64,000 bases of DNA from Escherichia coli (GTDB taxonomy: Bacteria > Pseudomonadota > Gammaproteobacteria > Enterobacterales > Enterobacteriaceae). The stretch lies in assembly GCF_030384885.1 (NCBI RefSeq), contig NZ_CP128613.1. The stretch is one strand, 5' to 3'. The notes below the pieces were generated by a model. It searched no databases. It saw nothing but the letters and a program-made list of their open reading frames with translations, and was not told the origin of the DNA. The first letter of the stretch is position 1. Every line of letters begins with the position of its first letter. Below are positions 1 to 49,906 of this stretch, piece by piece. The translations under genes were made by a program, and so were the position numbers.

Positions 1-112
1 GTGCGCCAGATAAGACACAACAGCGTCGCATCAGGCATCTCGCACAACCGCCGGATGCGGCGTGAATGCCTTATCCGGCGGCCCACAAGTCGGCATCAGG
101 CATTGATGCCCC
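1..112. repeat. REP/BIME-like cluster of palindromic units
   Basis: Direct read: units such as gccggatgcggcgtgaatgccttatccggc match the enterobacterial REP consensus; the 110-aa ORF called across it is an artefact. Confidence 0.7.
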
Positions 113-1069
113 TCAATACCCCATGTTTTTCTTCTTCTCTAACTCTTCTTTTGCAGTATCAGGCAGGTAAAGGGTGGACTTGGTCAGGGTCAGCTTTTCA
201 GGCAGGGTGCCGTCTTTTTTATATTTCTCCAGCGCATCAAAAGCGGGGCCTGCCATGTTCGGCGTCAGTTCAACGCTGGCGTTCGCTTCGCCATCAATCA
301 TCGCTTTGTAGATGTCCGGCACGCCGTCGATAGAGCCTGTCAGGATATCTTTGCCCGGTTTCAGGCCCGCTTCTTTAATTGCCTGAATTGCACCAATCAC
401 CATGTCATCGTTATGGGCGTAAACCATGCAGATGTTTTTGCCGTTGTTTTCCGCTTTGATAAAGCTCTCCATCACTTCTTTGCCTTTGCTGCGGGTGAAG
501 TCACCTGACTGCGAGCGGATAATTTTGATATTTGGCGCATTCTTAATGGCTTCGGCAAAGCCTTTCTTACGGTCAATGGCGACGCTGGCCCCAACGGTGC
601 CCTGCAGCTCCACCACGTTGCATGGTTTGCCATTCACTTCTTTTACCAGCCAGTCACCGATCAATTTGCCTTCGAGGATGTTGTCGGCAGTGACGGTGGT
701 CATATAGAGAGATTTGTCTTTCACATCGATGGAACGGTCAAGCAAGAAGACCGGGATTTCGGCATCTTTCGCCTCTTTTAATACCGGTTCCCAACCAGTC
801 GCCACCACCGGAGCGATAAAGATCGCATCCACCCCTTGTGCAACGAAGGAACGTACCGCTTTAATCTGGTTTTCCTGCTTTTGCTGACCATCGGCAATTT
901 TCAACGTGATACCGCGTTTTTCGGCTTCACTTTTCGCCACGTTGGTTTCTGCGGCGCGCCAGCCGGATTCCGATCCGACCTGCGAAAATCCTACGGTTAA
1001 TGGAGCGGCCAACGCCATAGACGACATGGCTGCCGAGACTGCAGAGACTACAAGTATGCGTTTCCACAT
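113..1069 (-). CDS. ytfQ: Periplasmic sugar-binding protein of ABC transporter (galactofuranose-binding YtfQ)
   Basis: 318-aa ORF with N-terminal signal peptide; matches E. coli YtfQ from memory; position next to ppa as in K-12. Confidence 0.93.
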   Translation of the reverse strand: MWKRILVVSAVSAAMSSMALAAPLTVGFSQVGSESGWRAAETNVAKSEAEKRGITLKIADGQQKQENQIKAVRSFVAQGVDAIFIAPVVATGWEPVLKEAKDAEIPVFLLDRSIDVKDKSLYMTTVTADNILEGKLIGDWLVKEVNGKPCNVVELQGTVGASVAIDRKKGFAEAIKNAPNIKIIRSQSGDFTRSKGKEVMESFIKAENNGKNICMVYAHNDDMVIGAIQAIKEAGLKPGKDILTGSIDGVPDIYKAMIDGEANASVELTPNMAGPAFDALEKYKKDGTLPEKLTLTKSTLYLPDTAKEELEKKKNMGY

Positions 1070-1331
1070 AGGGTTGTCCTCGTCGGGGTAATTATTATTG
1101 GTGAAAAGATGTTCGCGAAAAAACTATAGACAATTCGTTATGTAACGGATTGCGTTACATCACACTTCAAAAAAGTAAATAAAACGTTAATCACAAGTTT
1201 GTAATCGCTTTCATCTCACTATGAAAAATGCGGCTACGGTTATGGATTTTCCTGCTCTTTAAACCACCTTAAAACTGGCTAAAAAGGAAAATGAAGAAGA
1301 AAACAAGCGAAGACATTCGGCGCGAGTTGGC

Positions 1332-1337
1332 TATAAT
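1332..1337 (+). promoter_or_regulatory. Candidate -10 hexamer (tataat) of ppa promoter
   Basis: Perfect TATAAT about 40 nt upstream of the ppa ATG; -35 not canonical; inference only. Confidence 0.35.
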
Positions 1338-1378
1338 ACTCGGCACTTGTTTGCCACATATTTTTAAAGGAAACAGAC

Positions 1379-1909
1379 ATGAGCTTACTCAACGTCCCTG
1401 CGGGTAAAGATCTGCCGGAAGACATCTACGTTGTTATTGAAATCCCGGCTAACGCAGATCCGATCAAATACGAAATCGACAAAGAGAGCGGCGCACTGTT
1501 CGTTGACCGCTTCATGTCCACTGCGATGTTCTATCCGTGCAACTACGGTTACATCAACCACACCCTGTCTCTGGACGGTGACCCGGTTGACGTACTGGTC
1601 CCGACTCCGTACCCGCTGCAGCCAGGTTCCGTGATTCGCTGCCGTCCGGTTGGCGTTCTGAAAATGACCGACGAAGCCGGTGAAGATGCGAAACTGATTG
1701 CTGTTCCGCACACCAAGCTGAGCAAAGAATACGATCACATCAAAGACGTTAACGATCTGCCTGAACTGCTGAAAGCACAGATCGCTCACTTCTTCGAGCA
1801 CTACAAAGACCTCGAAAAAGGCAAGTGGGTGAAAGTTGAAGGCTGGGAAAACGCAGAAGCCGCTAAAGCTGAAATCGTTGCCTCCTTCGAGCGCGCAAAG
1901 AATAAATAA
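1379..1909 (+). CDS. ppa: Inorganic pyrophosphatase
   Basis: 176-aa ORF whose translation matches E. coli Ppa from memory. Confidence 0.97.
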
Positions 1910-1925
1910 GTTCTTCTAGTGCCAT

Positions 1926-1965
1926 AACCCTGAACGCCGGGCTTCGGTTAGTAAGGGTTTTTTAT
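1926..1965 (+). terminator. Putative intrinsic terminator after ppa
   Basis: GC-rich imperfect hairpin (aaccc...gggtt) followed by a T-run; stem not perfect. Confidence 0.45.
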
Positions 1966-2251
1966 GCCCGCGATAAATAAACTCTCTATTCCCCTATCAT
2001 TATTCTCAGCGCTTGCAAGGCTTGAACGGTAAGAACAAGCTAAACTCGACCACCATTTTGCTGTTCATAGCCGCTTGCTGGAAATTAGCCGACCTCACTC
2101 ATTCTCACCGTTCAAAGCGTGCCCCCGTTTTACCCCTGCGTAATTGTGAACGCCAGCAGAGTTTTTTATGCGTTTACGGATATGGAAAGCGGCTCGGAGA
2201 GAAAAGCTAAAGATGGGGAAGTTACAAAAAAAATCGCGAGATACATCGCAT

Positions 2252-2286
2252 AAAACAACGCCACCCGAAGGTGGCGTGCTTTTATT
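2252..2286. terminator. Bidirectional intrinsic terminator between ppa and ytfP
   Basis: Hairpin acgccacc-cgaa-ggtggcgt flanked by an A-run upstream and a T-run downstream, directly after the ytfP stop. Confidence 0.7.
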
Positions 2287-2287
2287 A

Positions 2288-2629
2288 TTACTTATCCCTG
2301 TCTAACCAGTCGCCGCTTTCAATTAGCTTTAATCCATCGACGGGTCGTTGATAAACGTACATCCATGCACTCCCGTACGGCGTCTGAATCAACTGGCGCG
2401 CGTATTCACCGCCCCTGGTGCGCAAGGCATCAAGTTCGGCCAGCGTGGCGTTGTCAATACGATAAACTTCACCGTGTACTGTTCCGTTCCCCGGAACTGC
2501 GCCTGGATAGTGGCCCAGGCTATACAACTGGTAGTTATCGATACTGAAATCGCCCAGTAACTGGGCATTGGTCATCCAGTGACTGTTGCCTTGTTTGTGG
2601 CGTAAACTGCCGTAGACAAATATTCGCAT
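2288..2629 (-). CDS. ytfP: Gamma-glutamylcyclotransferase family protein YtfP
   Basis: 113-aa ORF; matches E. coli YtfP from memory; immediately upstream of tamB. Confidence 0.9.
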   Translation of the reverse strand: MRIFVYGSLRHKQGNSHWMTNAQLLGDFSIDNYQLYSLGHYPGAVPGNGTVHGEVYRIDNATLAELDALRTRGGEYARQLIQTPYGSAWMYVYQRPVDGLKLIESGDWLDRDK

Positions 2630-2631
2630 TG

Positions 2632-8183
<5,552 letters not shown>

Positions 8184-11800: not shown

Positions 11801-11830
11801 TGTTAATAACATAAATTCTGGAAAAATAAA

Positions 11831-11862
11831 TTTCCCCTATCGATATATATGGGATAGGGGAA
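11831..11862. terminator. Bidirectional intrinsic terminator between ytfJ and ytfI
   Basis: Hairpin tcccctatc-gatatatat-gggatagggga with A/T runs on both sides. Confidence 0.65.
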
Positions 11863-11900
11863 TTAAGTCTCTGAGTTTTTACGCCGAACTCATACTAGTA

Positions 11901-12824
11901 TCAATAACCCTTATTCGCGTTTAACGGTTTTACCTCTTTTTTAAACGCTTCAATGGTAGATTTATATTTCTTGTGAATCTTTTCTTCGGTATAATTACCG
12001 TTTGCGGCCAGATTTGCACTTACAATCGCTTCCACTTGCTCGGTTATTTCCACTTGTTGGTAACCTGCATCAACCAGAAAATTATAAATAAGAGAGTAAT
12101 CTTCACCCTGCAAAAAAATATAAGAGCCAGTTCGAAGTTCCTCATCCCCTCCATAGATTTTAAGAGCAAAGCCCAAAGATTCTATGACCATGGCATAATT
12201 TCTATTATTTATTTCCTCGCAAAAATACCATCCTTCACATTCTTTAATGCTACCTTCTGGCCCTTCAAGTTCAAATTTACCCCGTTTTAATTTGCTTACT
12301 ACATTCTCCAAATAAGCAGAATTGTAAGATAAGTTACCCGCCGCCTTCCGAAAATAACCGTTAATCCTTTCAGGTATGTCAGACTGTTTTTTCTGCAAAA
12401 TATCATAGGTATACAATCTTCTATTTTGTGCTAGTGGAAATTCACGGTTTTTAAAGTCTATAAATGAGTTATACTCATTTATTGTTATAGGGATTTCTTC
12501 GTATTCAAATCCAGTGCCTCGCAATGTCATTGTATATTCGGCACCGTTATCTTTAAGGCGGAAGCTGATAAGAAAATTATCCATGGAGTGAACGGTTTCA
12601 TCTTTTAATGAAAGCACCTGATAACTATTTTTATCGATCTGTGTTGCTCTAAGAAAGAACTCCCTTAAAATTAACAAACTATCATAATTCGAAATCCAAT
12701 CCCTTTTCTTAAATGCATGCTGAATATTATTAAAGAAATTATTTGAATGTATTTTTGTATGCGATGACTTTACAAATAACTCCACTGCACCAAAAAAATT
12801 ATTGTGTCTGATCTTGGGTAACAT
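11901..12824 (-). CDS. ytfI: Uncharacterized protein YtfI, AT-rich
   Basis: 307-aa ORF, markedly AT-rich versus flanks; no motif I recognise; position between ytfJ and cysQ as in K-12. Confidence 0.8.
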   Translation of the reverse strand: MLPKIRHNNFFGAVELFVKSSHTKIHSNNFFNNIQHAFKKRDWISNYDSLLILREFFLRATQIDKNSYQVLSLKDETVHSMDNFLISFRLKDNGAEYTMTLRGTGFEYEEIPITINEYNSFIDFKNREFPLAQNRRLYTYDILQKKQSDIPERINGYFRKAAGNLSYNSAYLENVVSKLKRGKFELEGPEGSIKECEGWYFCEEINNRNYAMVIESLGFALKIYGGDEELRTGSYIFLQGEDYSLIYNFLVDAGYQQVEITEQVEAIVSANLAANGNYTEEKIHKKYKSTIEAFKKEVKPLNANKGY

Positions 12825-13036
12825 ATGACAACCTTATTATATTTGGTTATTCTATGTCGCCATTAAATATCTTATTAAAGAAGTAAACTATCAAAAAAAG
12901 CTCATTATTAAAACATAACTTATTAACGTTAGAATATTTACACTTTAAATACAATCCCTTTATATCTATAACTTTTTAGGTTGGAAACAAATCAGGATGG
13001 CAGAATCAGGAAATACACTGTTTCTGCCATATATAT

Positions 13037-13777
13037 TTAATAAATAGAGACTCTGAACCCAGGATTCAGGAACGACTCGCGCGGGGTATAATCCAGCGGT
13101 TTACCCTGCCAGTCGTGAACGTGTGCTCCGGCCGCTGCCGCAACTGCGTGACCGGCAGCGGTATCCCAAATATTAGTTGGCCCGAAACGCGGATAGAGTT
13201 GAGCCTGCCCTTCCGCCACCAGGCAGAATTTCAGCGAAGAGCCGATAGACGTGGTTTGATGTTCGCCAAGCTGTTGCAGATACTCTTTCAGCTCCGCATC
13301 CGCATGGGAACGGCTGATCACCACCAGCGGCGGGCGCGCATCGCGGACCTGAATCTGCTTGCGTACACCGCACTCTTCTTTCCAGGCTTTGCCGTCTGCC
13401 GCGCTGTACATTACGTTCATTACCGGCGCATACACCACACCTAAAATCGGTTTGCCGTGGTCGATGAGCGCAATATTAACGGTGAATTCACCATTACGTT
13501 TAATAAACTCTTTAGTACCATCCAGCGGGTCTACCAGCCAGTAACGCTGCCAGTGTTGACGGACTTCCCAACCGGGAGGATCTTCTTCAGAAAGGACCGG
13601 AATATCCGGTGTCAGCGTACGTAAACCGTCCATGATAACGGTGTGTGCGGCAATATCCGCTGCCGTTACCGGAGAATTGTCCGCTTTGCTGACGACGTCC
13701 ATCGGTTTCGTCCCGTCGTAGACCTGCATAATGGCATCGCCTGCATTCCGTGCAAGCTGGCATACTTGATCTAACAT
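13037..13777 (-). CDS. cysQ: 3'(2'),5'-bisphosphate nucleotidase CysQ
   Basis: 246-aa ORF with inositol-monophosphatase-family motifs (DPLDGT, WDTAAG). Confidence 0.95.
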
Positions 13778-20972: not shown

Positions 20973-21593
20973 TTAGAGGATTTCCAGCAGTTCGACTTCA
21001 AACACCAGGGTGCTGAACGGAGGGATGGACGCGCCAGCGCCACGCTCGCCATATGCCAGTTCCTGCGGGATAGTCAGTTCCCATTTAGAACCTACCGGCA
21101 TCAGAGTCAGTGCTTCAATCCAGCCAGGGATCACGCCGTTAACCGGGAATTCAGCCGGTTCGCCACGAGCAACGGAGCTGTCAAACACAGTGCCGTCGAT
21201 CAGTTTTCCGGTGTAATGAACACGAACGCGGTCGGTACGTGCCGGAATTGCGCCTTCCCCCTGGTTGATCACGCGGAATTGCAGGCCAGATTCGGTGCTA
21301 TTCACGCCCTCTTTTTTGGCGTTTTCTTCAAGATATTTCACACCTTCGGCAGCCATCGCCTGGAAACGTTGGCGACGTACGGCATCAGCGCGTTCGTGGA
21401 TTTCACGCAGCGCGCGGTGCACCACATCAACCGGAACAGCCGGATGTTTGCCTTCCAGCGCATCGGCAATGCCTGCAACCAGTGCTTCTGGCAGCAGCCC
21501 TTCCAGGCCAGATTCACTCAGTTGTTGCCCTACCTGCAAACCAATGCCGTAGCTTGCTTGCGCTTCGATGGTGTCAAAAGTTGGGGTGGTCAT
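20973..21593 (-). CDS. fklB: FKBP-type peptidyl-prolyl cis-trans isomerase FklB
   Basis: Start set at [12 protein letters not shown], 206 aa; FKBP domain in the C-terminal half. Confidence 0.93.
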
Positions 21594-21810
21594 CGTATTT
21601 CCTTTCTTAGGGTATAAAGTAGCGGGCAGCATATCAGCCACACTTCTTTGGGTAAAACTTTGTCGCGGGAATGATGACAAATCCCGGGGAAAAAGAAACA
21701 ATAGCAATATCCCGTATGAATATAATAAAGGCGGGTTTACCACGGACATCATAGCGTTAGCTTATTCATAGGCTATGATTGAGGAACAAGACGCGGAGCA
21801 GGAGGAAACC

Positions 21811-22449
21811 ATGCCCGGGCGCTTTGAACTAAAACCAACCCTGGAGAAAGTCTGGCACGCGCCGGACAATTTTCGCTTCATGGACCCGCTACCGCCGATG
21901 CATCGTCGGGGGATCATTATTGCCGCTATTGTATTGGTGGTCGGATTTCTACTCCCGTCTGATGATACGCCAAACGCGCCGGTGGTGACGCGTGAAGCAC
22001 AGTTAGATATTCAGTCGCAATCACAACCGCCGACAGAAGAACAGCTGCGGGCGCAATTAGTCACACCACAAAATGATCCTGATCAGGTGGCTCCGGTCGC
22101 TCCAGAACCGATACAGGAAGGCCAACCGGAAGAGCAGCCGCAAACCTCGCAAGTGCAACCTTTCCAGCCAGATAGCGGAATTGACAATCAATGGCGCTCT
22201 TACCGTGTCGAACCCGGTAAAACGATGGCGCAGCTGTTCCGCGACCACGGACTGCCCGCTACCGATGTCTATGCAATGGCGCAGGTAGAAGGCGCGGGTA
22301 AGCCGCTGAGTAATTTGCAAAACGGGCAGATGGTGAAAATCCGCCAGAATGCCAGCGGCGTGGTGACGGGCTTAACCATTGATACGGGGAATAATCAACA
22401 GGTCCTGTTTACCCGCCAGCCGGATGGGAGTTTTATTCGTGCGCGGTAG
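21811..22449 (+). CDS. ytfB: Cell-division protein YtfB (OapA-domain)
   Basis: Start set at [13 protein letters not shown] (212 aa); TM segment then Pro/Gln-rich linker; 3' end overlaps the convergent TetR gene. Confidence 0.88.
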
Positions 22450-23080
22450 ATGAAGGGTCAACCAAAAGCCAGCTAAGGATTGTCTCTTTGATGACCTTAC
22501 GCCTGGCTTCCAGTGCCTGCGGTGAAACCATACTGATGTGATAAACCAGGCCAAGCGTATGCTGGTTGATCAAATAATATCCTCCAAGAGCAGCAATATT
22601 AATATTCACCTGCAACGGGTCGATATCTGGCTTAAAAATATTGCGCCGTTTGCCTTCAGCTAATAATGACTCCATTAACTGTAAGTGTGCGTGGTTAATT
22701 TCTAAAAGGCGCTGTGATTTTGCATAATGCACCCCTTTACTCTGGTTTTCACTATGCACAATTTTTAAAAACCAGGGGTTAGCAATGTAATAATCCCAGG
22801 TGAAATCGATAATTTTCTCAATGGCTTTTTGTGGCGGAAGACCTGAGAAATCAAGGGATTTTTCTTTTTGCCGAATATCATTCCAGGTATATTCCAGCAC
22901 TTCGATAAATAAATTTTCTTTATTACCAAAGTGATGATAAACCGTCTGTTTACTGCACTCCGCGGCCTTGACGATATTATCGACTCTGGCCCCTTCGTAA
23001 CCATATTCGGCAAATTCATTAACCGCACATAACAACAGCTTTTCCTTCAGGCTTTGTACGTTGCTGGTATCAAGATACAT
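22433..23080 (-). CDS. TetR/AcrR-family transcriptional regulator
   Basis: N-terminal HTH ([28 protein letters not shown]) typical of TetR; ATG at 23080 preferred over the GTG at 23140 used by the ORF track; divergent from the downstream operon. Confidence 0.8.
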
Positions 23081-23202
23081 TCCGCTTCCCCACGTCTTCT
23101 TCGTGATGACTATCTTAACCCGATTTGTTAGAAGCTCCACTAAAATGGCTAAAAACTCGCAATTTCATCGGGTTATCAAATGCTCTGTGATCATTATCGC
23201 AT

Positions 23203-23224
23203 ATCAACCAACTAGATGGTTGAT
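23203..23224. promoter_or_regulatory. Candidate TetR operator (inverted repeat) in divergent promoter region
   Basis: atcaacca-actaga-tggttgat, 8-bp perfect arms, between the TetR gene and the SDR gene; inference. Confidence 0.35.
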
Positions 23225-23291
23225 CTTTCTTGCCACACATTGCAAGCTAATCGTCACTTAAGGAAATAATATTCAAAAAGAGGGTTATTGT

Positions 23292-24083
23292 ATGAAGTCA
23301 ACACGTCCTGTTGCTGTCATCACTGGAGCCGCACGTGGTATTGGAAAGGGCTGTGCACTGGAACTTGCGCGTGGCGGATTTAATCTGCTGATTAATGATC
23401 GTCCGGATGCCGACAGCGTAGAAAAATTACATGCCACACAACAAGAATGTCTGGCGGAAGGCGTGGAAGTGATTTGCTTCCCTGCTGATGTTGGCGATCT
23501 CTCCCTTCATGAAGAGATGCTCGACGCGGCGCAAAACCAGTGGGGACGTCTGGACTGTCTACTCAACAACGCAGGCATTTCAGTGAAAAAACGCGGTGAC
23601 CTCCTCGACCTCGAACCAGACAGCTTCGACCAAAACATTGCCATTAACACCCGTGCGCCGTTCTTCCTTGCTCAGGCATTCAGTAAGCGATTACTGGCAC
23701 AGCCGAAACCGGAAGCAGAACTGCCGCACCGCTCGATTATTTTTGTCAGTTCCATAAACGCCATCATGCTGGCGATGAATCGCGGCGAATATACCATTGC
23801 CAAAACTGCCGTCTCCGCCGCAGCTCGTCTGTTTGCCGCTCGCCTTTGCAATGAACAAATTGGCGTTTATGAAGTGCGCCCTGGCCTAATCAAAACCGAT
23901 ATGACCATTCCGGCAACGGCTTATTACGACGAACTGATTGCTAAGGGGTTAGTGCCGTGGGGACGTTGGGGTTATCCGGCTGATATTGCCTCAACGGTCC
24001 GCGCGATGGCGGAAGGCAAACTGATTTACACCTGTGGTCAGGCGGTCGCCATCGACGGCGGCTTAAGTATGCCGCGCTTCTGA
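23292..24083 (+). CDS. Short-chain dehydrogenase/reductase (SDR)
   Basis: TGAARGIG cofactor motif, NNAG, and Ser...Y-x3-K catalytic motif (YTIAK) read directly. Confidence 0.85.
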   Translation: MKSTRPVAVITGAARGIGKGCALELARGGFNLLINDRPDADSVEKLHATQQECLAEGVEVICFPADVGDLSLHEEMLDAAQNQWGRLDCLLNNAGISVKKRGDLLDLEPDSFDQNIAINTRAPFFLAQAFSKRLLAQPKPEAELPHRSIIFVSSINAIMLAMNRGEYTIAKTAVSAAARLFAARLCNEQIGVYEVRPGLIKTDMTIPATAYYDELIAKGLVPWGRWGYPADIASTVRAMAEGKLIYTCGQAVAIDGGLSMPRF

Positions 24084-24092
24084 GGCTGAATC

Positions 24093-24935
24093 ATGAGAGA
24101 TCTGTTACAACGCCCGGATTTATTCAGTATCAATACTGCGACACTGGGCTATAAAACGCCGCTACCTGCCATTATTGATGCCTGCGCCGCACGCGGTATT
24201 GGCGCGATTGCCCCCTGGCGCAGGGAGTTACAGGGTGAAGATCTCCAGCAAATCGCCCGCCAGCTTGCTGCCAGTAACATGAGCGTTTCCGGTTTGTGTC
24301 GTAGCACCTATTACACCGCGCCGACGCTGACGGAACGCAAACTGGCGATTGATGATAACCGCCGGGCGCTGGACGACGCCGCTGTACTGAACGCCGCCTG
24401 TTATATGCAGGTGGTTGGCGGTCTGCCAATGGGAACAAAAGATCTGTACGAAGCGCGGGAACAAGTGAAACAAGGGATTCGCCAGTTGCTGCCACATTCG
24501 AAAGATGTCGGCGTGCCAATTGCGCTGGAGCCGCTGCACCCGATGACAGCTGCCGATCGCTCTTGCCTGTGCACGTTACGTCAGGCGCTGGACTGGTGTG
24601 ATGAACTCGATCCCGATGGGGAGTTTGGCCTCGGCGTGGCGGTGGATGTTTATCACGTCTGGTGGGACCCGGATCTCGCCAGTCAGATCCTGCGTGCCGG
24701 AAAACGCATCCTCGCGTTTCATGTTTCCGACTGGCTGGTGCCAACCACCGATTTAGTCAATGACCGGGGAATGCCGGGAGATGGCGTAATCAATATTCCG
24801 TCTATTCGTCGCCAGGTAGAAAATGCCGGATTTAACGGTGCTGTGGAACTGGAAATTTTCTCACCGTACTGGTGGCAGCAAGATATTAACAGCACGTTGG
24901 ATATTAGCGTCGATCGCATCGCGCATTATTGCTAA
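24093..24935 (+). CDS. Sugar-phosphate isomerase/epimerase-like (xylose-isomerase-type TIM barrel) protein
   Basis: 280-aa ORF; family assignment by overall resemblance only (…AFHVSDW…), no database check. Confidence 0.55.
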   Translation: MRDLLQRPDLFSINTATLGYKTPLPAIIDACAARGIGAIAPWRRELQGEDLQQIARQLAASNMSVSGLCRSTYYTAPTLTERKLAIDDNRRALDDAAVLNAACYMQVVGGLPMGTKDLYEAREQVKQGIRQLLPHSKDVGVPIALEPLHPMTAADRSCLCTLRQALDWCDELDPDGEFGLGVAVDVYHVWWDPDLASQILRAGKRILAFHVSDWLVPTTDLVNDRGMPGDGVINIPSIRRQVENAGFNGAVELEIFSPYWWQQDINSTLDISVDRIAHYC

Positions 24936-24938
24936 GGA

Positions 24939-25721
24939 ATGATCATGAGTGACCAACCCGTTCTGTTCAGCAGAGCGGCGGCTTCCTGCCGCCTGACATT
25001 GAACCGTGAAGATAAATGTCATGCTATTAATGAAGAAATGATCGAATCTCTCGACCATTATTTAAATGAAATTGAAAACGACACCACATTACGATTAGTC
25101 GAATTAACGGCAACCGGCGATAAATTCTTTTGTGCAGGCGGCGATATTAAATCGTGGTCAGCCTATTCGCCATTAGATATGGGCAGAAAATGGATTAAAC
25201 GCGGCAATGACGTTTTTAATCGCCTGCGCAATTTACCTCAATTAACGGTTGCGAATCTCAACGGTCATACCATCGGCGGTGGTATTGAACTTGCCTTGTG
25301 CTGCGATATTCGTATTGCTCGCCCCGGCGCGAAATTCTCTAATCCGGAAGTAATGCTCGGCATGGTGCCTGGCTGGATGGGCATTGAACGCGTGCTTAAT
25401 CAGGTCGGTCCGGTGGTCGGTCGCCAGATGCTGATGCTGGGTAAACGCCTGACGGCGCAGGAAGCTCAGGCAGCGAATTTAATTGATGAAGTGGTAGAAA
25501 AAGAACAGGTGGAAAGCTGGATGGCGAATCAGTTAGCGCAGCTGGAAAAATGCGGTCCGGTGGCGCTCGCACATATCAAGCAACTGATTCTGGCTCTAGA
25601 AAATAAACATGCTGATTACCCGCACCAGTTACTGGCTGGATTAATGTCCGCCACTCAGGATTGCCAGCAGGCGACGCGCGCATTTGCCGAAAAAAGTAGC
25701 GTGAGCTTCCAAAATCAATAA
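24939..25721 (+). CDS. Enoyl-CoA hydratase/isomerase (crotonase family)
   Basis: Crotonase signatures FFCAGGDIKSW and GHTIGGGIELALCCDIRIA. Confidence 0.85.
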   Translation: MIMSDQPVLFSRAAASCRLTLNREDKCHAINEEMIESLDHYLNEIENDTTLRLVELTATGDKFFCAGGDIKSWSAYSPLDMGRKWIKRGNDVFNRLRNLPQLTVANLNGHTIGGGIELALCCDIRIARPGAKFSNPEVMLGMVPGWMGIERVLNQVGPVVGRQMLMLGKRLTAQEAQAANLIDEVVEKEQVESWMANQLAQLEKCGPVALAHIKQLILALENKHADYPHQLLAGLMSATQDCQQATRAFAEKSSVSFQNQ

Positions 25722-25730
25722 GGAAATTGT

Positions 25731-27272
25731 ATGCGTAAGATAACAACCGCCGAGACACTGGCGGCGCAAATTCAGGACGGTGCAACCATTGCCATTAGCG
25801 GTAATGGCGGCGGCATGGTGGAAGCGGACCATATTCTGGCTGCTATTGAAGCGCGTTTCCTGCAAACCGGACACCCGCGCGATCTGACATTAATCCACTC
25901 GCTGGGCATTGGCGATCGCGACTGCAAAGGCACTAACCGCTTCGCTCATGCAGATATGCTCAAACGCATCATTGCCGGACATTTTACCTGGTCGCCCAAG
26001 ATGCAGGATCTGGTGAAAAACAATGCTATTGAAGCCTACTGCTTCCCTGGTGGCGTAATTCAGGCACTGCTGCGGGAGATCGGTGCCGGACGTCCAGGGC
26101 TTTTTACCCACGTTGGACTGGGATCGTTTGTTGATCCGCGCAACGGCGGCGGTAAGTCGAACGCCAGCACCACTGAGGATCTGGTAGAACTGATTGAAAT
26201 CGACGGTGAAACCAAACTTCGTTATCGCCCTTTCAAAGTGGATTACGCGATTTTGCGTGGCACTTATGCCGATCCTCGAGGCAACGTCAGCCTTGAAGAA
26301 GAGGCGATTGATATGGATAGCTATTCCATGGCGCTGGCAGCACACAACAGCGGTGGCAAAGTGTTCGTACAGGTGCGCGATGTGCTGGAAGCTGGTGCCA
26401 TTGAACCACGCCGGGTCAAATTACCGGGCATTCTGGTTGATGGCATCGTTGAACACCGCGAACAACCGCAAACATATCTTGGCGGTTACGACCTGACCAT
26501 CAGCGGTCAGCACCGCCGTTTAAGTTCTAACGACGCTATTGAACTGGTTACTCATCCGGTGCGCCGCCTGATTGCCCGTCGGGCAGCACGCGAACTGGTG
26601 GCTGGCGCTTCAACCAACTTTGGCTTTGGCATTCCCGGCGGCATTCCTGGGGTTGCACTGCGCGAAGGCGTGCCTTATCAAAGTTTATGGCTGAGCGTCG
26701 AGCAAGGCGTGCATAACGGTATGATGCTGGATGATGCTCTGTTCGGCTGCGCCCGTAACGCCGATGCCATTATTCCATCACTCGATCAATTCGAATTCTA
26801 CAGTGGCGGAGGGATCGATATCACCTTCCTCGGCATGGGAGAGATGGATCAGCATGGTAACGTCAACGTCTCCCATCTCAATGGCAATCTCATTGGCCCC
26901 GGCGGATTTCTCGAAATTGCGCAAAACGCCCGTAAAGTGGTGTTCTGTGGCACGTTCGACGCCAAAGGTAGCAAGATTGATGTAACACCAGATGGCTTGC
27001 ATATCGCCCAGTCAGGTCAAATCCCTAAACTGGTTACCCAAGTGGAAAAAATCACTTTTAGCGCCGCCTACGCACAGCAAAGCGGTCAGGAAGTGTTGTA
27101 TATCACTGAACGTGCAGTATTCCAATTAACAGCAGAAGGCGTTGAATTAATTGAAATCGCACCAGGTGTGGAGATTGAGCGCGACATTCTGCCATATATG
27201 GCTTTCCGTCCAATTATCAATCAGCCACGCCTGATGGAAAGTAGCCTGTTTACGCCGATGGAGGATGCATGA
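25731..27272 (+). CDS. Family-I CoA-transferase (YdiF/acetate CoA-transferase-like, fused A/B subunits)
   Basis: 513-aa ORF; long stretches resemble E. coli YdiF as I recall it (…VGLGSFVDPRNGGGK…); 3' end overlaps the next gene (ATGA). Confidence 0.8.
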   Translation: MRKITTAETLAAQIQDGATIAISGNGGGMVEADHILAAIEARFLQTGHPRDLTLIHSLGIGDRDCKGTNRFAHADMLKRIIAGHFTWSPKMQDLVKNNAIEAYCFPGGVIQALLREIGAGRPGLFTHVGLGSFVDPRNGGGKSNASTTEDLVELIEIDGETKLRYRPFKVDYAILRGTYADPRGNVSLEEEAIDMDSYSMALAAHNSGGKVFVQVRDVLEAGAIEPRRVKLPGILVDGIVEHREQPQTYLGGYDLTISGQHRRLSSNDAIELVTHPVRRLIARRAARELVAGASTNFGFGIPGGIPGVALREGVPYQSLWLSVEQGVHNGMMLDDALFGCARNADAIIPSLDQFEFYSGGGIDITFLGMGEMDQHGNVNVSHLNGNLIGPGGFLEIAQNARKVVFCGTFDAKGSKIDVTPDGLHIAQSGQIPKLVTQVEKITFSAAYAQQSGQEVLYITERAVFQLTAEGVELIEIAPGVEIERDILPYMAFRPIINQPRLMESSLFTPMEDA

Positions 27273-29350
27273 GTCAGCTTGATGACACCCTCCTTGATGC
27301 GCTGACGCATGTCACTTTCCCGAAGGGTTTTGCACAGGCAGAACCCGCATGGGTTGTCACGGTAGACGGTGTTGATTACCCACTCTGGCAAACAGATGCC
27401 CTGGTAGTCGGCAGTGGTGCAGCCGGGCTGCGTGCAGCTGTGGAACTTAAACGCCGCCAGCAAAATGTGTTGATCGCCACTGCCGGGTTATATATGGGGA
27501 CGTCGGCATGTTCTGGTTCCGATAAACAGACACTGTTTACCGCCGCTACCGCGGGCAATGGCGACAACTTCACCAAACTGGCAGAGGCACTGGCGAGCGG
27601 TGGAGCGATGGATCACGACACCGCTTATGTCGAAGCGGTAGGTTCTCTGCACACTCTTGGCGGGTTGCAATATCTTGGTCTGGAATTACCGGAAGATCGC
27701 TATGGCGCGATTCTTCGTTATCAAACCGACCATGACGAAGCCGGGCGTGCAACCTCGTGTGGGCCGCGTACCTCAAGGTTAATGGTGAAAGTGCTGTTGG
27801 AAGAAGTGCAGCGCCTCGCCATTCCAGTGTTGACCAGTGCAACAGTGATTAAACTGCTGCATCAGCGTGACGAAAACGGCGAAGACTGCGTGGCGGGGGC
27901 AATCCTCGCGACCGGTCATCGCGCCCATAACCCATGGGGGCTGGCAATTGTGACTGCGCCCAATGTGGTGCTGGCAACAGGAGGGCCTGGCGAGCTTTAT
28001 CGAGACAGTGTGTACCCACATAAATGCTTCGGCTCGCTGGGGCTGGCGCTGGAAGAAGGTCTGACGCTAACCAATCTGACCGAAAGCCAGTTTGGTATTG
28101 GCACGCCACGCAACACCTTTCCGTGGAATTTGTCCGGCACCTATGTACAGGTGATCCCATATATCTATTCCGTAGATGCTGAGGGCAACGAGTATAACTT
28201 CCTCACGGATTACTATCGAACTACCCAGGAACTGGCTTCAAACATCTTCCGTAAAGGCTATCAGTGGCCGTTTCACGCCACACGAGTGATGGATTTTGGC
28301 TCCAGCTTGTTAGATATGGCAGTAGCGCAAGAGCAGCAATCAGGGCGTCAGGTATTTATGGATTTCAATCGCAATCCTGAACCTGTGCCGGGTGACATGC
28401 CGTTCTCATTAGATCGACTGGACGACGACGTTCGCGCGTATCTGGAAAATAACGACGCTCTGGCACCATCGCCCATCGAACGACTGCAACGAATGAATCC
28501 GCTGTCTATCTCGCTGTATAAGATGCACGGTTACGATCTCACCACGCAGCCATTGCAGTTTGCCATGAATAATCAGCATATGAATGGCGGCATTGAAGTG
28601 GATATCTGGGGGCAAACCTCCCTGCCCGGCTGTTTCGCCGTGGGGGAAGTTGCTGGCACACACGGCGTTACCCGACCTGGCGGTGCGGCGCTGAATGCCG
28701 GACAGGTATTTGCCGTGCGACTGGCACGTTTTATTGGTTGCACACAAAAGCGGTCCGTTGAGGATGATATCGCGCAGCTGGTAGCCTCACCTCTGCATAC
28801 AATCAGAGAAGTTATCGCTCAGGCACTGGCAAACGAGAACGGAATGACGCTGGCAACGGTGAAAGAAAAAATCCAGGCGCGAATGTCTGATTACGCGGGA
28901 TTTATTTGCCATGCTGATAAAGTTCGTCACGCCGCCCGTGACGCCATGCTGTTAAATGAATTTGCGCAGCAACATGGTCTAACTATCAACCACGCCGGTG
29001 AAATTGCCGAGCTATTTATGTGGCGGCATATGGCATTAACATCCGCTGCGGTGTTAAGCCAGCTATCACATTATATTGATGCTGGCGGTGGTAGTCGTGG
29101 AGCACGGATGATTATTGATCCACAAGGAGAATATCTTCCACAAACTCGTCGCGGCGCAATCGAAGATTGGCGTTTTCGCTCTGAACAAGCTGAAGATAAA
29201 AATCACAGACTAACTCTCTCCTTTTCACAAGGTTTATTTATTAATGAAATTAAGTTCTTGAGAAACTTACCGCATATTAAAGGTATTTACTTTGAGAAGA
29301 ATTGGCCTGATTTTCTTAACGGAACAATTTATCAGACACGGCATGAATAA
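27269..29350 (+). CDS. FAD-dependent oxidoreductase (fumarate reductase/succinate dehydrogenase/L-aspartate oxidase-like flavoprotein)
   Basis: Dinucleotide-binding motif VVGSGAAGLRAA, HMNGG and GEVAGTHGVTRPGGAALN motifs of the FAD_binding_2 family; 693 aa with an AT-rich C-terminal tail. Confidence 0.75.
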   Translation: MSQLDDTLLDALTHVTFPKGFAQAEPAWVVTVDGVDYPLWQTDALVVGSGAAGLRAAVELKRRQQNVLIATAGLYMGTSACSGSDKQTLFTAATAGNGDNFTKLAEALASGGAMDHDTAYVEAVGSLHTLGGLQYLGLELPEDRYGAILRYQTDHDEAGRATSCGPRTSRLMVKVLLEEVQRLAIPVLTSATVIKLLHQRDENGEDCVAGAILATGHRAHNPWGLAIVTAPNVVLATGGPGELYRDSVYPHKCFGSLGLALEEGLTLTNLTESQFGIGTPRNTFPWNLSGTYVQVIPYIYSVDAEGNEYNFLTDYYRTTQELASNIFRKGYQWPFHATRVMDFGSSLLDMAVAQEQQSGRQVFMDFNRNPEPVPGDMPFSLDRLDDDVRAYLENNDALAPSPIERLQRMNPLSISLYKMHGYDLTTQPLQFAMNNQHMNGGIEVDIWGQTSLPGCFAVGEVAGTHGVTRPGGAALNAGQVFAVRLARFIGCTQKRSVEDDIAQLVASPLHTIREVIAQALANENGMTLATVKEKIQARMSDYAGFICHADKVRHAARDAMLLNEFAQQHGLTINHAGEIAELFMWRHMALTSAAVLSQLSHYIDAGGGSRGARMIIDPQGEYLPQTRRGAIEDWRFRSEQAEDKNHRLTLSFSQGLFINEIKFLRNLPHIKGIYFEKNWPDFLNGTIYQTRHE

Positions 29351-29370
29351 TATTGCAAAGGTTAATCACT

Positions 29371-29847
29371 ATGCGAAATATAATCAGATCTATTAATTCA
29401 TTGCTTTCCACGTTGAACATTACCATTTTGGCAATTATTGTGATGTGCGTTACATGGCAAGTAGTAGCACGATTTATCTTTAAAAGCCCCAGCATTTTTA
29501 CAGATGAACTTAGTCGTTTACTATTTATTTGTCTTGGACTTTTTGGTGGTGCTTATACTGCCGGACAAAACCGACATCTGGCCATTGATCTTCTGCCAAT
29601 GATGCTAAAAGGAAAATCCCGACGTTATTTATTCTTATGTATTCAGGCCATTGTTATTCTTTTTGCCTCTATCATTATGGTTTATGGTGGCGGGTTATTA
29701 ACACTGGACACATTTGATTCAGGGCAAACTTCTCCGGCTTTAGGCTGGCAGATGGGATATATTTACATGAGCATTCCAATAAGTGGCATCCTTATTATTA
29801 TATACACCATAGATACAGTTTTAACCGAACTTAAACAACCACTCTAA
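29371..29847 (+). CDS. TRAP transporter small permease (DctQ-like)
   Basis: About 158 aa with 4 predicted TM helices; ATG at 29371 with upstream aaagg preferred over the TTG at 29353; directly upstream of DctM. Confidence 0.75.
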   Translation: MRNIIRSINSLLSTLNITILAIIVMCVTWQVVARFIFKSPSIFTDELSRLLFICLGLFGGAYTAGQNRHLAIDLLPMMLKGKSRRYLFLCIQAIVILFASIIMVYGGGLLTLDTFDSGQTSPALGWQMGYIYMSIPISGILIIIYTIDTVLTELKQPL

Positions 29848-29869
29848 AATAAGTAGGGATGGAGAAAAC

Positions 29870-31171
29870 ATGGATTACTGGTTACCGATCATTGTGTTAT
29901 TTGGTTCTTTCTTTTTTATGTTGGCATTAGGTGTTCCTATTGTCTATGCTATTGGTTTATCAACACTGGCATCAATTACTACACAACTCGATTTCAACTC
30001 AGCATTGAGTGTGGTTTCACAAAAGTTAGCCTCCGGGTTAGATAGTTTTACGTTGTTGGCAATCCCATTTTTTATCTTGTCTGGCAACATTATGAATCAT
30101 GGAGGAATAGCGCGACGATTAATCAACTTTGCCCGTATTCTCGGCGGTCGTCTGCCAGGCTCACTTGCTCACTGTAATATTCTTGCCAATATGCTGTTCG
30201 GGGCAATTTCTGGTTCAGCTGTTGCTTCGGCGGCTGCGATGGGCGGCGTCATGCATCCACAGCAGGTTAAAGAGGGTTACGACCCGGCATTCAGTACCGC
30301 TGTTAACGTTGCCTCTGCACCGACAGGTTTACTTATTCCACCCAGTAATACGTTAATTGTCTTTTCACTGGTCAGTGGTGGTACTTCTATTGCCGCACTG
30401 TTCCTGGCAGGATATGTCCCGGGAATTTTATTGGGCCTGGCGCTGATGACTGTGGCTGGTATTATCGCGGTACGCCGGGGTTATCCAAAACCAGAACGTC
30501 CGACTTTGCGCCAGGCTGGAGTGGCAATATGGATGGCGATCCCCAGTATTTTCCTGATTGTATTAATTATGGGTGGTGTACTAAGCGGTATTTTTACCCC
30601 GACAGAAGCATCTGCAATTGCGGTAATTTATACCCTTTTCCTTGCACTGGTTCTTTATCGTGAAATATCAGTTAAAGATTTACCTAAGATATTTCTGGAG
30701 TCCGTCATTACCACTGCAATTGTCTTGTTGTTAATTGGTTCTTCAATGGGAATGTCATGGGCAATGTCAAACGCTGACGTTCCCTTCCTGATTCTCGATT
30801 TGCTTAACACTATTTCTGATAATCCAATAATAATCCTGCTTATTATCAATATTATTCTGTTGATTATCGGCACATTTATGGATATGACACCGGCAGTACT
30901 GATTTTTACGCCGATATTTTTACCCGTTGTCACCGAACTGGGCATGGACCCGATTCACTTTGGTATTGTCATGGTACTGAACATGTGTATCGGTATTTGT
31001 ACTCCGCCTGTAGGCAGTGTGTTATTTGTCGGTTGTAGTGTATCTAAATTACCGATTAATAAAATTATCAAACCTATGCTGCCCTTCTATGCCGTGATGG
31101 TATTGGTGCTGGCTATGGTGACCTATATTCCGCAAATCAGTATGGCATTGCCAAGAGCACTGGGCTACTGA
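29870..31171 (+). CDS. TRAP transporter large permease (DctM-like)
   Basis: 433-aa polytopic membrane protein; size and hydrophobicity pattern typical of DctM. Confidence 0.85.
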   Translation: MDYWLPIIVLFGSFFFMLALGVPIVYAIGLSTLASITTQLDFNSALSVVSQKLASGLDSFTLLAIPFFILSGNIMNHGGIARRLINFARILGGRLPGSLAHCNILANMLFGAISGSAVASAAAMGGVMHPQQVKEGYDPAFSTAVNVASAPTGLLIPPSNTLIVFSLVSGGTSIAALFLAGYVPGILLGLALMTVAGIIAVRRGYPKPERPTLRQAGVAIWMAIPSIFLIVLIMGGVLSGIFTPTEASAIAVIYTLFLALVLYREISVKDLPKIFLESVITTAIVLLLIGSSMGMSWAMSNADVPFLILDLLNTISDNPIIILLIINIILLIIGTFMDMTPAVLIFTPIFLPVVTELGMDPIHFGIVMVLNMCIGICTPPVGSVLFVGCSVSKLPINKIIKPMLPFYAVMVLVLAMVTYIPQISMALPRALGY

Positions 31172-31223
31172 TGCGCATTCACTGGCGGCTCCTGCCGCCA
31201 TATTTATTAGAAAAGGAACATCT

Positions 31224-32195
31224 ATGAAAATAAAAGTATCCGCTGGCATTATCGGTGCTGTTCTTATGTTATCTGCAGGCCAGTCCTGGGCAGTAACATT
31301 AAAACTTAGCCATAATCAGGATAAATCTCATCCTGTTCATAAAGCGATGGAGTTCTTTGCGAAAAAGAGCAAAGAGTACTCTAACGGTGATATTACTATT
31401 CGTATTTATCCAAATGGAACATTGGGTACTCAACGAGAAACAATGGAGCTGATTCGTTCTGGTGCTATTCCGCTGGTAAAAACCAATGCGGCGGAGATGG
31501 AAGCCTTCGAGAGTTCGTATAAAATATTTAGCCTGCCTTATTTGTTCCGCGATCGTGATCATTATTATCAGGTCATGCAAGGCGATATCGGAAGGAAAAT
31601 CCTCGACTCAACGAAAAACAAAGGTTATTTCGGTCTGACTTTCTATGATGGAGGCGCCCGCAGCTTCTACGGCAATAAACCGGTGCTGAAACCAGACGAT
31701 CTCAAAGGAATGAAAGTTCGTGTCCAGCCAAGCCCAGGGGCAGTTGAGATGATCAAAGTCATGGGAGGTAACCCAACACCGCTGGATTATGGAGAGTTGT
31801 ACACAGCATTGCAGCAAGGTGTGGTTGATATGGCGGAAAACAGTGTGATGGCGCTGACCACCATGCGCCACGGTGAAGTAGCAAAATCCTTCAGCCTTGA
31901 CGAACACACTATGGTTCCTGATGTGGTTCTAATGAGCAATGCTTCGTTTGATAAGCTTAGCCCGGAAAATCAGGCAGCTATATTAAAAGCAGCTAAAGAA
32001 TCAATGAGCTACATGAAAGACTTGTGGAGCGAGGAAGAGAAAAAAGAATTCGCTAAACTGGATCAAATGGGCGTGAAAGTCTACAAGGTTGATAAAGCAC
32101 CGTTTATCGAGAAAGTGCAGCCGATGTACGCAGCCTTTGCTAAGGAAAACCCTGCTCTCGCCCCAATGCTAACTGATATTCAGGCGACTAAGTAA
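31224..32195 (+). CDS. TRAP transporter substrate-binding protein (DctP-like), periplasmic
   Basis: 323 aa, signal peptide MKIKVSAGIIGAVLMLSAGQSWA; DctP-size soluble protein adjacent to DctQM. Confidence 0.8.
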   Translation: MKIKVSAGIIGAVLMLSAGQSWAVTLKLSHNQDKSHPVHKAMEFFAKKSKEYSNGDITIRIYPNGTLGTQRETMELIRSGAIPLVKTNAAEMEAFESSYKIFSLPYLFRDRDHYYQVMQGDIGRKILDSTKNKGYFGLTFYDGGARSFYGNKPVLKPDDLKGMKVRVQPSPGAVEMIKVMGGNPTPLDYGELYTALQQGVVDMAENSVMALTTMRHGEVAKSFSLDEHTMVPDVVLMSNASFDKLSPENQAAILKAAKESMSYMKDLWSEEEKKEFAKLDQMGVKVYKVDKAPFIEKVQPMYAAFAKENPALAPMLTDIQATK

Positions 32196-32252
32196 TTATC
32201 TTAATAGGGCTGCTTATTGTGGCCCTTAGCAATATCTACAAGCGCTCGCTAT

Positions 32253-32288
32253 AAAAGCAAAACGCCGACCAATGGTCGGCGTTTTTAC
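32253..32288. terminator. Bidirectional intrinsic terminator between TRAP operon and rplI
   Basis: aaaagcaaa-acgccgacc-aatg-gtcggcgt-ttttacg: hairpin flanked by A-run and T-run. Confidence 0.75.
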
Positions 32289-32306
32289 GTCTCGTTGAAT
32301 AACGAA

Positions 32307-32768
<462 letters not shown>

Positions 32769-32797
32769 TCAAAGTCGTATTAATGGACCGTGACCGA

Positions 32798-33344
<547 letters not shown>

Positions 33345-37486: not shown

Positions 37487-39238
<1,752 letters not shown>

Positions 39239-40303
39239 ATGAGTAAAGTGAAAAGTATCACCCGTGAATCCTGGATCCTGAGCACTTTCCCGGAGTGGGG
39301 TAGCTGGTTGAATGAAGAAATTGAACAAGAACAGGTAGCTCCTGGCACATTCGCGATGTGGTGGCTAGGCTGCACCGGGATCTGGCTGAAATCTGAAGGA
39401 GGCACCAACGTTTGCGTCGATTTCTGGTGTGGTACTGGCAAACAAAGTCACGGTAACCCACTAATGAAACAGGGTCACCAGATGCAGCGCATGGCTGGCG
39501 TGAAAAAACTGCAACCGAACCTGCGTACCACCCCATTTGTTCTTGATCCGTTTGCGATTCGCCAGATCGACGCGGTACTGGCAACTCACGATCACAACGA
39601 TCATATCGACGTCAACGTCGCTGCTGCCGTGATGCAGAACTGCGCTGATGACGTGCCATTTATCGGGCCGAAAACCTGCGTGGATTTGTGGATTGGCTGG
39701 GGTGTGCCGAAAGAACGTTGCATCGTGGTCAAACCGGGCGATGTCGTTAAAGTGAAAGACATTGAAATTCATGCCCTTGACGCGTTTGACCGTACTGCAC
39801 TGATCACTTTGCCTGCCGATCAAAAAGCGGCTGGCGTACTGCCAGACGGCATGGACGATCGCGCGGTAAACTACCTGTTCAAAACGCCGGGCGGTACCCT
39901 GTATCACAGTGGCGATTCCCACTACTCTAACTACTATGCGAAGCACGGTAACGAGCATCAGATCGACGTGGCATTAGGTTCATACGGTGAAAACCCACGT
40001 GGTATCACCGACAAAATGACCAGTGCTGATATCCTGCGTATGGCAGAAGCGCTGAATACAAAAGTGGTTATCCCGTTCCACCACGACATCTGGTCAAACT
40101 TCCAGGCCGATCCGCAAGAGATCCGCGTACTGTGGGAGATGAAAAAAGATCGCCTGAAGTATGGCTTCAAGCCGTTTATCTGGCAGGTCGGTGGCAAATT
40201 TACCTGGCCGCTGGATAAAGACAATTTCGAGTACCACTATCCACGTGGTTTTGACGATTGCTTCACCATTGAACCGGATCTGCCGTTCAAGTCGTTCCTG
40301 TAA
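39239..40303 (+). CDS. ulaG: L-ascorbate-6-phosphate lactonase UlaG (metallo-beta-lactamase fold)
   Basis: 354 aa from [12 protein letters not shown]; HDHNDH metal-binding motif. Confidence 0.95.
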
Positions 40304-49378: not shown

Positions 49379-49780
49379 TTAGTGTGAATATTCTTCTGTA
49401 ATTTCAGCAAGATCCAAAGCGTTATCTACCAGCGTGGTTATTTCCAGCAGGATATCTTCAAGAGAAGATTTAAGCGATAACGCCCCGAAAACAATGTAAT
49501 ACTCTTCCTGTTGCACGCTGGAGATCCCTACCGATGACAACGGCATCATCTTCTGATTTCTTAATAAGAAGGTATTAAATTCATCTGGATTGCAGATACT
49601 ACTTACCGGACAAATAAAGGTTTCGATAATCATTTGGCGGGAAGTAAAAAGAATATTGATTTGCAAATCGCCATAATCATTCATTTTAATAATTAATGCG
49701 TTTTCATTATTTGTTATATCAATATTTTGTTCAGGTATAGTTTGCAGCGCCGTCGCCAGCGCCAACGGATTCCATGTCAT
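49379..49780 (-). CDS. yjfI: DUF2170 protein YjfI
   Basis: 133-aa ORF; first gene of the yjf cluster. Confidence 0.88.
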   Translation of the reverse strand: MTWNPLALATALQTIPEQNIDITNNENALIIKMNDYGDLQINILFTSRQMIIETFICPVSSICNPDEFNTFLLRNQKMMPLSSVGISSVQQEEYYIVFGALSLKSSLEDILLEITTLVDNALDLAEITEEYSH

Positions 49781-49856
49781 ATATTATTCCATAGTGATTA
49801 AGTTGAAATATTAATAATATAAATATTTGTAGCACGTAATTATCTTACCAGCTCCA

Positions 49857-49892
49857 GACAAAAAAAAACCATCCAAATATGGATGGTTTTTC
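49857..49892. terminator. Intrinsic terminator downstream of rlmB (rnr-rlmB operon)
   Basis: aaaaaaaa-accatcc-aaatat-ggatggt-ttttc: hairpin with A-run and T-run on either side. Confidence 0.8.
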
Positions 49893-49906
49893 ATAATTCA
49901 GAGAAA

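Follow-up and report, generated by a model that had tools for sequence, protein, structure and literature searches.

Does an abrupt loss of guanine-plus-cytosine (GC) content inside a bacterial gene mark the point at which DNA of different ancestry was joined? The question is raised by a 64,000-nt stretch of Escherichia coli DNA (contig NZ_CP128613.1; hereafter the window), which is 100% identical to the chromosome of E. coli 2013C-4282 (NZ_CP027579.1). An accessory operon separates the core genes ytfB and rplI; in it, five enzyme genes precede the three genes of a tripartite ATP-independent periplasmic (TRAP) transporter. The last enzyme gene (27269–29350, + strand) encodes a flavoprotein of 693 amino acids (aa) ending in ...YFEKNWPDFLNGTIYQTRHE, annotated in NZ_CP027579.1 as a flavin adenine dinucleotide (FAD)-dependent oxidoreductase, and its 3' end is AT-rich. 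A preliminary description made from the letters alone proposed a recombination junction or a C-terminal extension of different origin. Taken as a whole, the locus is probably best explained by a recombination-shuffled cassette with junctions near the break in composition, combined with an old and conserved AT-rich tail.

The AT-rich end of the flavoprotein gene

In 200-nt windows, GC content falls from 0.48–0.60 to 0.30–0.375 at 29100–29400, and values of 0.32 or less occur in just 1.2% of such windows across the 64-kb stretch. Maximum likelihood within the flavoprotein gene placed the change in GC at third codon positions (GC3) at 29065, in codon 599, with a support interval (2 log-likelihood units) of 29029–29077. 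GC3 is 0.543 upstream of this codon and 0.242 downstream, and the log-likelihood ratio of 15.4 exceeds the largest value obtained from 1000 permutations, 10.3 (p ≤ 0.001). When all codon positions are used, the change point falls at 29193, where GC drops from 0.534 to 0.304. The AT-rich end noticed by eye is thus real and the shift significant under GC and codon-usage analysis. As had also been described, low GC runs on into the transporter genes dctQ (0.37), dctM (0.44) and dctP (0.445), the five enzyme genes having values of 0.48–0.55. The proposed extent of 60–80 codons, however, falls short of a synonymous shift that spans about 95 codons.

The 17 core genes that flank the operon supplied the codon usage from which expected GC and GC3 were derived. 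For codons 634–693, the amino acids alone predict a GC of 0.463, compared with 0.569 for the body of the gene; this K/N/I/F/Y-rich composition accounts for about half of the drop. The remainder is AT-biased synonymous usage, GC3 being 0.283 in this segment against 0.589 expected (z = −5.1). In codons 591–633, the amino acids predict a GC of 0.611 and GC3 is 0.256 against 0.613 expected (z = −5.0); the drop there is purely synonymous.

The tail itself (codons 591–693; 29041–29350, + strand) carries the motifs GGGSRGAR and WRFRSE, a predicted beta-hairpin at residues 646–663 and a predicted helix at 675–683 with FEKNWPDFL. It is kept in full-length homologues of 689–698 aa (76–91% identity, 99–100% coverage) from E. 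albertii, E. marmotae, Salmonella, Klebsiella oxytoca/grimontii, Citrobacter (C. tructae) and Entomohabitans, all of which contain the motif string GGGSRGAR...WRFRxE..DK...FEKNWPxFLxGxIY. An exhaustive HMMER search yielded 417 representatives at E ≤ 1e-30, and many relatives of about 640–700 aa with 35–55% identity could be aligned up to query residue ~688. Among 42 aligned sequences, the most distant at 33% identity, R610, G611 and F675 never vary, and S609, P668, E676 and W679 hardly do. The AlphaFold2 model (pLDDT 92.7, pTM 0.93) gives the tail values of 86–96 and limits disorder to the last ~3 residues. Because homologues of other genera and distant relatives carry the tail, and its predicted fold is confident, the AT-rich tail is, by alignment and structure prediction, a conserved element integral to the fold of the protein and no foreign extension. 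Its DNA was compared in E. albertii, E. marmotae, K. oxytoca, K. huaxiensis, Salmonella, C. tructae and Entomohabitans. The idea of a C-terminal extension of different origin fails on this comparison: other genera carry the same tail with similar AT-rich composition, and the alignment of homologues that had been suggested for detecting a unique tail revealed a conserved one.

Transporter exchange and the junctions around the break

Across 5426 complete E. coli genomes, the operon is present in a TRAP form in about 1448 (~27%) and in a form with a 425-aa major facilitator superfamily (MFS) transporter in about 1673 (~31%), and the remainder have neither. In K-12 the operon is deleted, leaving yjfZ and a ytfA pseudogene; from its position and annotation, the latter is apparently a remnant of the operon's TetR gene. 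The gene yjfZ is also kept by some MFS-type E. coli strains. The five enzyme genes are followed by MFS in E. albertii and E. marmotae. The TetR gene and the five enzyme genes are also present in K. oxytoca, Salmonella, C. tructae and Entomohabitans, with MFS and a reverse-strand EamA gene after them. At the same site, K. huaxiensis carries the five enzyme genes with TRAP and EamA, and the order of the four upstream enzyme genes is kept there in six genera. The suspicion that enzyme and transporter blocks form a mosaic was therefore well founded: the operon has alternative, non-homologous gene content between conserved flanks, the same five enzyme genes being followed by either TRAP or MFS.

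Comparison of the window with the common E. coli TRAP-type allele (L003), used as reference, located the edges of the exchanged DNA. Identity in 90-nt windows is 90–100% over 27449–28668, and only 1 difference occurs in 28200–28668, whereas differences are dense over 28669–30019. Synonymous divergence (dS) is 0.16 in codons 1–470 and ranges from 1.3 to saturated in codons 491–693. From 28669 to about 29290, identity to L003 is 0.44–0.84, against up to 0.90–0.94 to E. albertii and E. marmotae. Between K. huaxiensis and K. oxytoca, identity falls at much the same point of the gene, from 86–90% to 50–68% about 650 nt before the stop (codon ~480), with a dS of 0.74 in the body and saturation beyond. 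Relaxed constraint as the cause of the collapse after codon 467 is ruled out, since dS jumps about ten-fold and not nonsynonymous divergence alone; the dS discontinuity across codons 470–491 instead demonstrates a separate history of the C-terminal segment.

Three edges were placed. The left junction, given by the difference map and informative sites, lies at 28660–28669 (codon ~465–467) in a conserved GEVAGTHGVTRPGGAALNAGQVFAVRLAR patch. The right junction of the MFS-lineage-like segment lies at 29290–29311, within the FEKNWPDFL codons, according to codon-level alignment; the identity profile shows the affinity of the window allele switching at ~29250–29300. The third edge, in the difference map, falls at about 29980–30019, near dctM codon ~40–50. 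Informative sites delimit the MFS-like block from 28669 to 29290–29323, depending on the MFS-type parent allele (maximum chi-square 93–156); 129 of 158 match the E. coli ET729 side, and TRAP-like sequence stands on both flanks. Beyond the right junction, the last ~13 codons (…NGTIYQxxxE), the 20-nt spacer to dctQ and the dctQ start are all of the TRAP-lineage type. The two junctions within the gene coincide with islands conserved across genera that flank variable stretches: codons 471–490 (93% identity) and 674–688 (80%), next to stretches of 53% and 46%.

The MFS-like segment and the dctQ part share a limited distribution. The nearest alleles to 28669–29300 reach ~85% (E. coli ET729 group) and 70–94% (E. 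albertii/E. marmotae); the rare dctQ is ~80–85% identical to the common E. coli allele and 84% to all other E. coli. Since the same 4 genomes alone share both sub-blocks at ≥95%, 28669–30019 is, on sequence grounds, one rare imported haplotype of chimeric make-up, with a donor outside the sampled genomes.

The break in composition does not coincide with these edges. Informative sites remain MFS-like up to 29290, and because the GC3 change point at 29029–29077 sits inside a segment of uniform ancestry, the break is not a recombination junction; in-gene junctions do exist, as had been proposed, but not at the break. Nor is the break tied to the TRAP block, because MFS-linked alleles show it too: in E. 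albertii it lies at codon 589 (GC3 0.54 to 0.27) and in E. marmotae at codon 578. It lies about 40–50 codons before the stop in K. oxytoca, Salmonella and Entomohabitans and 79 codons before it in K. huaxiensis, the breaks in most other genera each having p ≤ 0.03. In C. tructae, GC is 0.41 in the last 60 codons against 0.53, but the best single change point is at codon 358. The break is absent from three distant homologues that share the tail motifs: L010 (p = 0.53; genome GC 0.64), L017 (p = 0.47; 0.65) and L018 (p = 0.22; 0.34). The AT-rich tail is thus a property of the enterobacterial lineage of this locus, independent of TRAP and not dictated by the protein, and the break is older than the transporter swap.

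Competing explanations for the low GC

Under the explanation we prefer, the AT-rich interval is the 3' end of the last enzyme gene in an accessory, TetR-controlled operon for a probable coenzyme A (CoA)-dependent catabolism, and its low GC is a long-standing trait of the enterobacterial version of the gene, whichever transporter comes next. The recombination-prone cassette would comprise the flavoprotein C-terminal domain (from codon ~467) together with the transporter genes, and its repeated exchange by homologous recombination would have given rise to the TRAP-linked, MFS-linked and deleted forms. Crossovers would have been resolved in the two conserved islands (codons ~459–490 and the FEKNWPxFL motif, ~674–688), and in this strain an MFS-lineage-like C-terminal domain is joined at 29290–29311 to TRAP-lineage sequence. 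We infer that the persistent synonymous AT bias reflects an AT-richer pool of often-exchanged accessory DNA (TetR, tail, transporters) rather than one recent event, repeated re-seeding of the tail by recombination from this pool being the preferred reading of the low GC3.

Several points weigh against this explanation. Because inter-genus synonymous sites are saturated, a donor composition inherited passively should have ameliorated, and the persistence of low GC3 therefore calls for either repeated re-import or a local force. The low-GC3 zone of Escherichia begins about 45 codons before that of the other genera; an old Escherichia-specific junction may lie near codon 590, a region saturated with synonymous change between genera. 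None of the genomes compared proved to be the donor of the 28669–30019 haplotype, and TRAP may have replaced MFS or the reverse.

A maintained local force is the rival that survives best, although we consider it unlikely. The AT-richness would be kept by a DNA or mRNA signal, such as H-NS nucleation, unstructured mRNA for translational coupling or an internal promoter. Such a force is in keeping with low GC3 being retained by all enterobacterial lineages although their synonymous sites are saturated; AT-richness is also seen on the TetR/promoter side of the operon, and just 20 nt separate the flavoprotein gene from dctQ. Yet L018 and L010, which have TRAP genes downstream, lack the break, and a zone of ~300 nt is far longer than translational coupling requires. 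Promoter-like sites number 5 against 3.4 expected, which is no excess, and none is in the tail; an internal promoter or terminator there was rejected, with no excess over shuffled sequences and no promoter-like site in 29000–29350. No Rfam family matched within 22000–33000, giving no sign of a structured RNA, and the tail contains no overlapping open reading frame of at least 60 aa on either strand besides the flavoprotein gene.

It is very unlikely that the break itself (about 29030–29200) joins the enzyme block to a low-GC TRAP block bearing a homologous 3' end or a foreign extension. GC is low without interruption from codon ~599 through dctQ, the Escherichia GC3 drop comes earlier than in other genera, and the TRAP-linked tails of L003 and K. 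huaxiensis share the signature GxWFEKNWPxFLxGxIYQP, all of which such a junction would accommodate. Against it stand the breaks at codons 578–589 of MFS-linked E. albertii and E. marmotae, the MFS-like informative sites that cross the break in the window and the conservation of the tail throughout the family. The origin of the transporter lends this junction some support, in that the nearest distant TRAP relatives belong to the lower-GC Vibrionaceae. The nearest non-Escherichia relative of dctP is in K. huaxiensis (81%), followed at ~60% by Vibrio, Photobacterium and Psychromonas; these Vibrio relatives, however, lie in hexuronate-type clusters, unlinked to the flavoprotein. Vibrionaceae as the direct TRAP donor was rejected because the closest DctP relatives there are no more than ~60% identical and the single locus examined, L011, proved to be a hexuronate/glucuronide-type cluster without the flavoprotein.

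That the K/N/I/F/Y-rich protein alone demands the AT-richness is hardly credible: GC at codon positions 1 and 2 does drop over the last 60 codons, to 0.37 from 0.54 for the remaining gene, and the amino acids do predict a lower GC there, but synonymous z values near −5, a G/R/A-rich peptide in codons 591–633 encoded with low GC3 and the break-less distant homologues that share the tail motifs rule out amino-acid composition as the sole cause and leave it a partial contributor.

Compared with other cassette replacements at fixed sites in Enterobacteriaceae, the preferred explanation invokes the same ingredients: TRAP, MFS or a deletion between conserved flanks, sharp identity edges, a roughly ten-fold dS jump and crossovers in conserved patches. 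The locus differs in that the left cassette edge lies inside an enzyme gene, so that a third of the flavoprotein moves with the transporter, and in that the window allele is a second-order chimera of an MFS-type C-terminal domain with TRAP.

The operon, its relatives and its probable role

The operon is preceded by a divergent gene annotated as a TetR/AcrR-family regulator (22433–23080, − strand; GC 0.39–0.43), which is AT-rich in all genera examined. The genes upstream of the flavoprotein, all on the + strand and assigned with Pfam and NCBIfam, encode a short-chain dehydrogenase/reductase (SDR; 23292–24083), a xylose-isomerase-like triose-phosphate isomerase (TIM) barrel protein (24093–24935), an enoyl-CoA hydratase (24939–25721) and a fused family-I CoA-transferase (25731–27272). 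The last of these overlaps the flavoprotein gene by 4 nt (27269–27272), and fused CoA-transferase–flavoprotein products of 1043–1078 aa occur in some E. coli records (P0013, P0030). Downstream, Pfam identifies dctQ (small permease, 29371–29847), dctM (large permease, 29870–31171) and dctP (solute-binding protein, 31224–32195), also on the + strand. Within the flavoprotein, codons 1–466 (27269–28668) encode the FAD-binding and capping domains, PF00890 covering residues 43–475, and codons 467 to ~680 (28669–29310), delimited by the ancestry comparison, encode the C-terminal helical domain and most of the tail.

The flavoprotein has the multi-domain fold (FAD-binding, capping, helical and C-terminal) of the SdhA/FrdA/NadB superfamily, as judged from its structural model. 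PF00890 matches at 92.7 bits (cut-off 20.4), and the GxGxxG FAD motif appears as VVGSGAAG with G48 and G50 invariant. The model superposes on FrdA/SdhA along the whole chain (TMq ~0.65 over ~670–700 columns), with a Foldseek match to FrdA 5vpn_A at E 3.5e-30 and TMq 0.64–0.66, and a profile alignment places its C-terminal helical domain on FrdA 341–563. In contrast, sequence identity to FrdA, SdhA and NadB is 15–19%, and the protein is ~100 residues longer than E. coli FrdA/SdhA and has its own tail motif, FEKNWPxFLxGxIY. Unlike FrdABCD and SdhCDAB, the operon contains no Fe–S (FrdB/SdhB) or membrane-anchor gene; the flavoprotein sits instead amid CoA-transferase, hydratase, SDR and TIM-barrel genes. 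It reached no NCBIfam equivalog (best 130 bits against a cut-off of 718), every score with the FrdA, SdhA, NadB and TfrA models being far under cut-off. Because no equivalog cut-off was reached and no FrdB-like partner gene is present, the protein apparently represents a soluble SdhA/FrdA-like branch outside the named equivalogs.

The transporter shares all three components with DctPQM TRAP systems (PF03480 280 bits, PF04290 108, PF06808 399), and the NCBIfam models TIGR00786 and NF037995 score above cut-off (DctM 460 bits, DctP 252). It differs from YiaMNO of E. coli, the YiaN score being 292 bits against a cut-off of 800, and from other DctPQM systems in being interchangeable at its locus with an MFS transporter. 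No NCBIfam equivalog was obtained for the TIM-barrel protein or the transporter components.

Related gene sets occur elsewhere. The same enzyme genes are joined to dctQM in another neighbourhood in L010, and the GC-0.34 contig L018 carries the order SDR-FAD-TIM-DctP-DctQ-DctM (86–6886). On the GC-0.65 contig L017, a flavoprotein–PfkB kinase pair lies with a LacI regulator (717–3735). The SDR/FAD/TIM trio and its linkage to TRAP recur far outside Enterobacteriaceae, a hint of a sugar-acid-like substrate. A MaoC-type dehydratase gene stands beside the operon in Entomohabitans (L008, 10657–11136) and in L010 (18694–18972), and the pathway may have included this dehydratase ancestrally, Escherichia having since lost it.

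Further variation was observed around the island. Other divergent patches (74–93%) relative to other E. coli alleles lie at 27158–27450, 27658–27950, 24400–24850 and 31600–32200; among them are the flavoprotein gene's 5' end and the 3' half of dctP. Patchwork variation thus marks the entire island, whereas the adjoining rplI–rpsF region is ~100% identical. In strain BEC1-S17-ESBL-07 (L004), the ytfB 3' end, TetR gene and operon promoter region are 69–89% identical to the window (21567–23350), this regulator side forming a second deeply diverged allele block. The operon MFS gene of E. coli S43 is split by an IS256-family transposase (L015, 5265–7870), Entomohabitans has an RVT_1 reverse-transcriptase gene adjoining rpsF (L008, 13914–15596), and strain Z0117EC0005 has a YagU-family gene between yjfY and ulaF (L003, 13675–14226) that is absent from the window. 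Elsewhere in the window, GC of 0.32 or less is reached in only three stretches: 11801–13050, with a hypothetical-protein gene (11901–12824, − strand) between ytfJ and cysQ; 38951–39250, the ulaA–ulaG divergent intergenic region; and 49551–49900, the yjfI/rlmB boundary.

The combination of CoA-transferase, hydratase, SDR, TIM-barrel protein and FrdA-like flavoprotein with a carboxylate-type transporter under TetR suggests that an organic acid is imported and then either broken down by a CoA-dependent route or put to reductive use. Nothing about the operon turned up in the literature when ytfA/yjfZ or the set of enzymes was searched for. Avoidance between MFS and TRAP genes in the E. coli pangenome has been described for lgoT, mdtM and nhaK (PMC10769857), which appears to concern another locus. 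As a long shot, the flavoprotein C-terminal domain and the transporter might form a co-adapted exchangeable unit, for example through docking or signalling, with the TRAP/MFS/absent polymorphism under balancing or niche-specific selection and a local force such as H-NS keeping the boundary AT-rich.

A GC break within a gene is often taken as a scar of horizontal transfer, and here that reading misplaces the junctions, which in fact fall in conserved motifs ~400 nt upstream and ~230 nt downstream of the break. The mechanism, cassette exchange by homologous recombination in an accessory operon, is ordinary and at this locus unusually well resolved. One catabolic enzyme set served by two unrelated uptake systems, TRAP and MFS, within a single species is a clean natural example, and the locus offers a convenient setting in which to study what leads bacteria to exchange transporters and to seek the substrate of this flavoprotein family.

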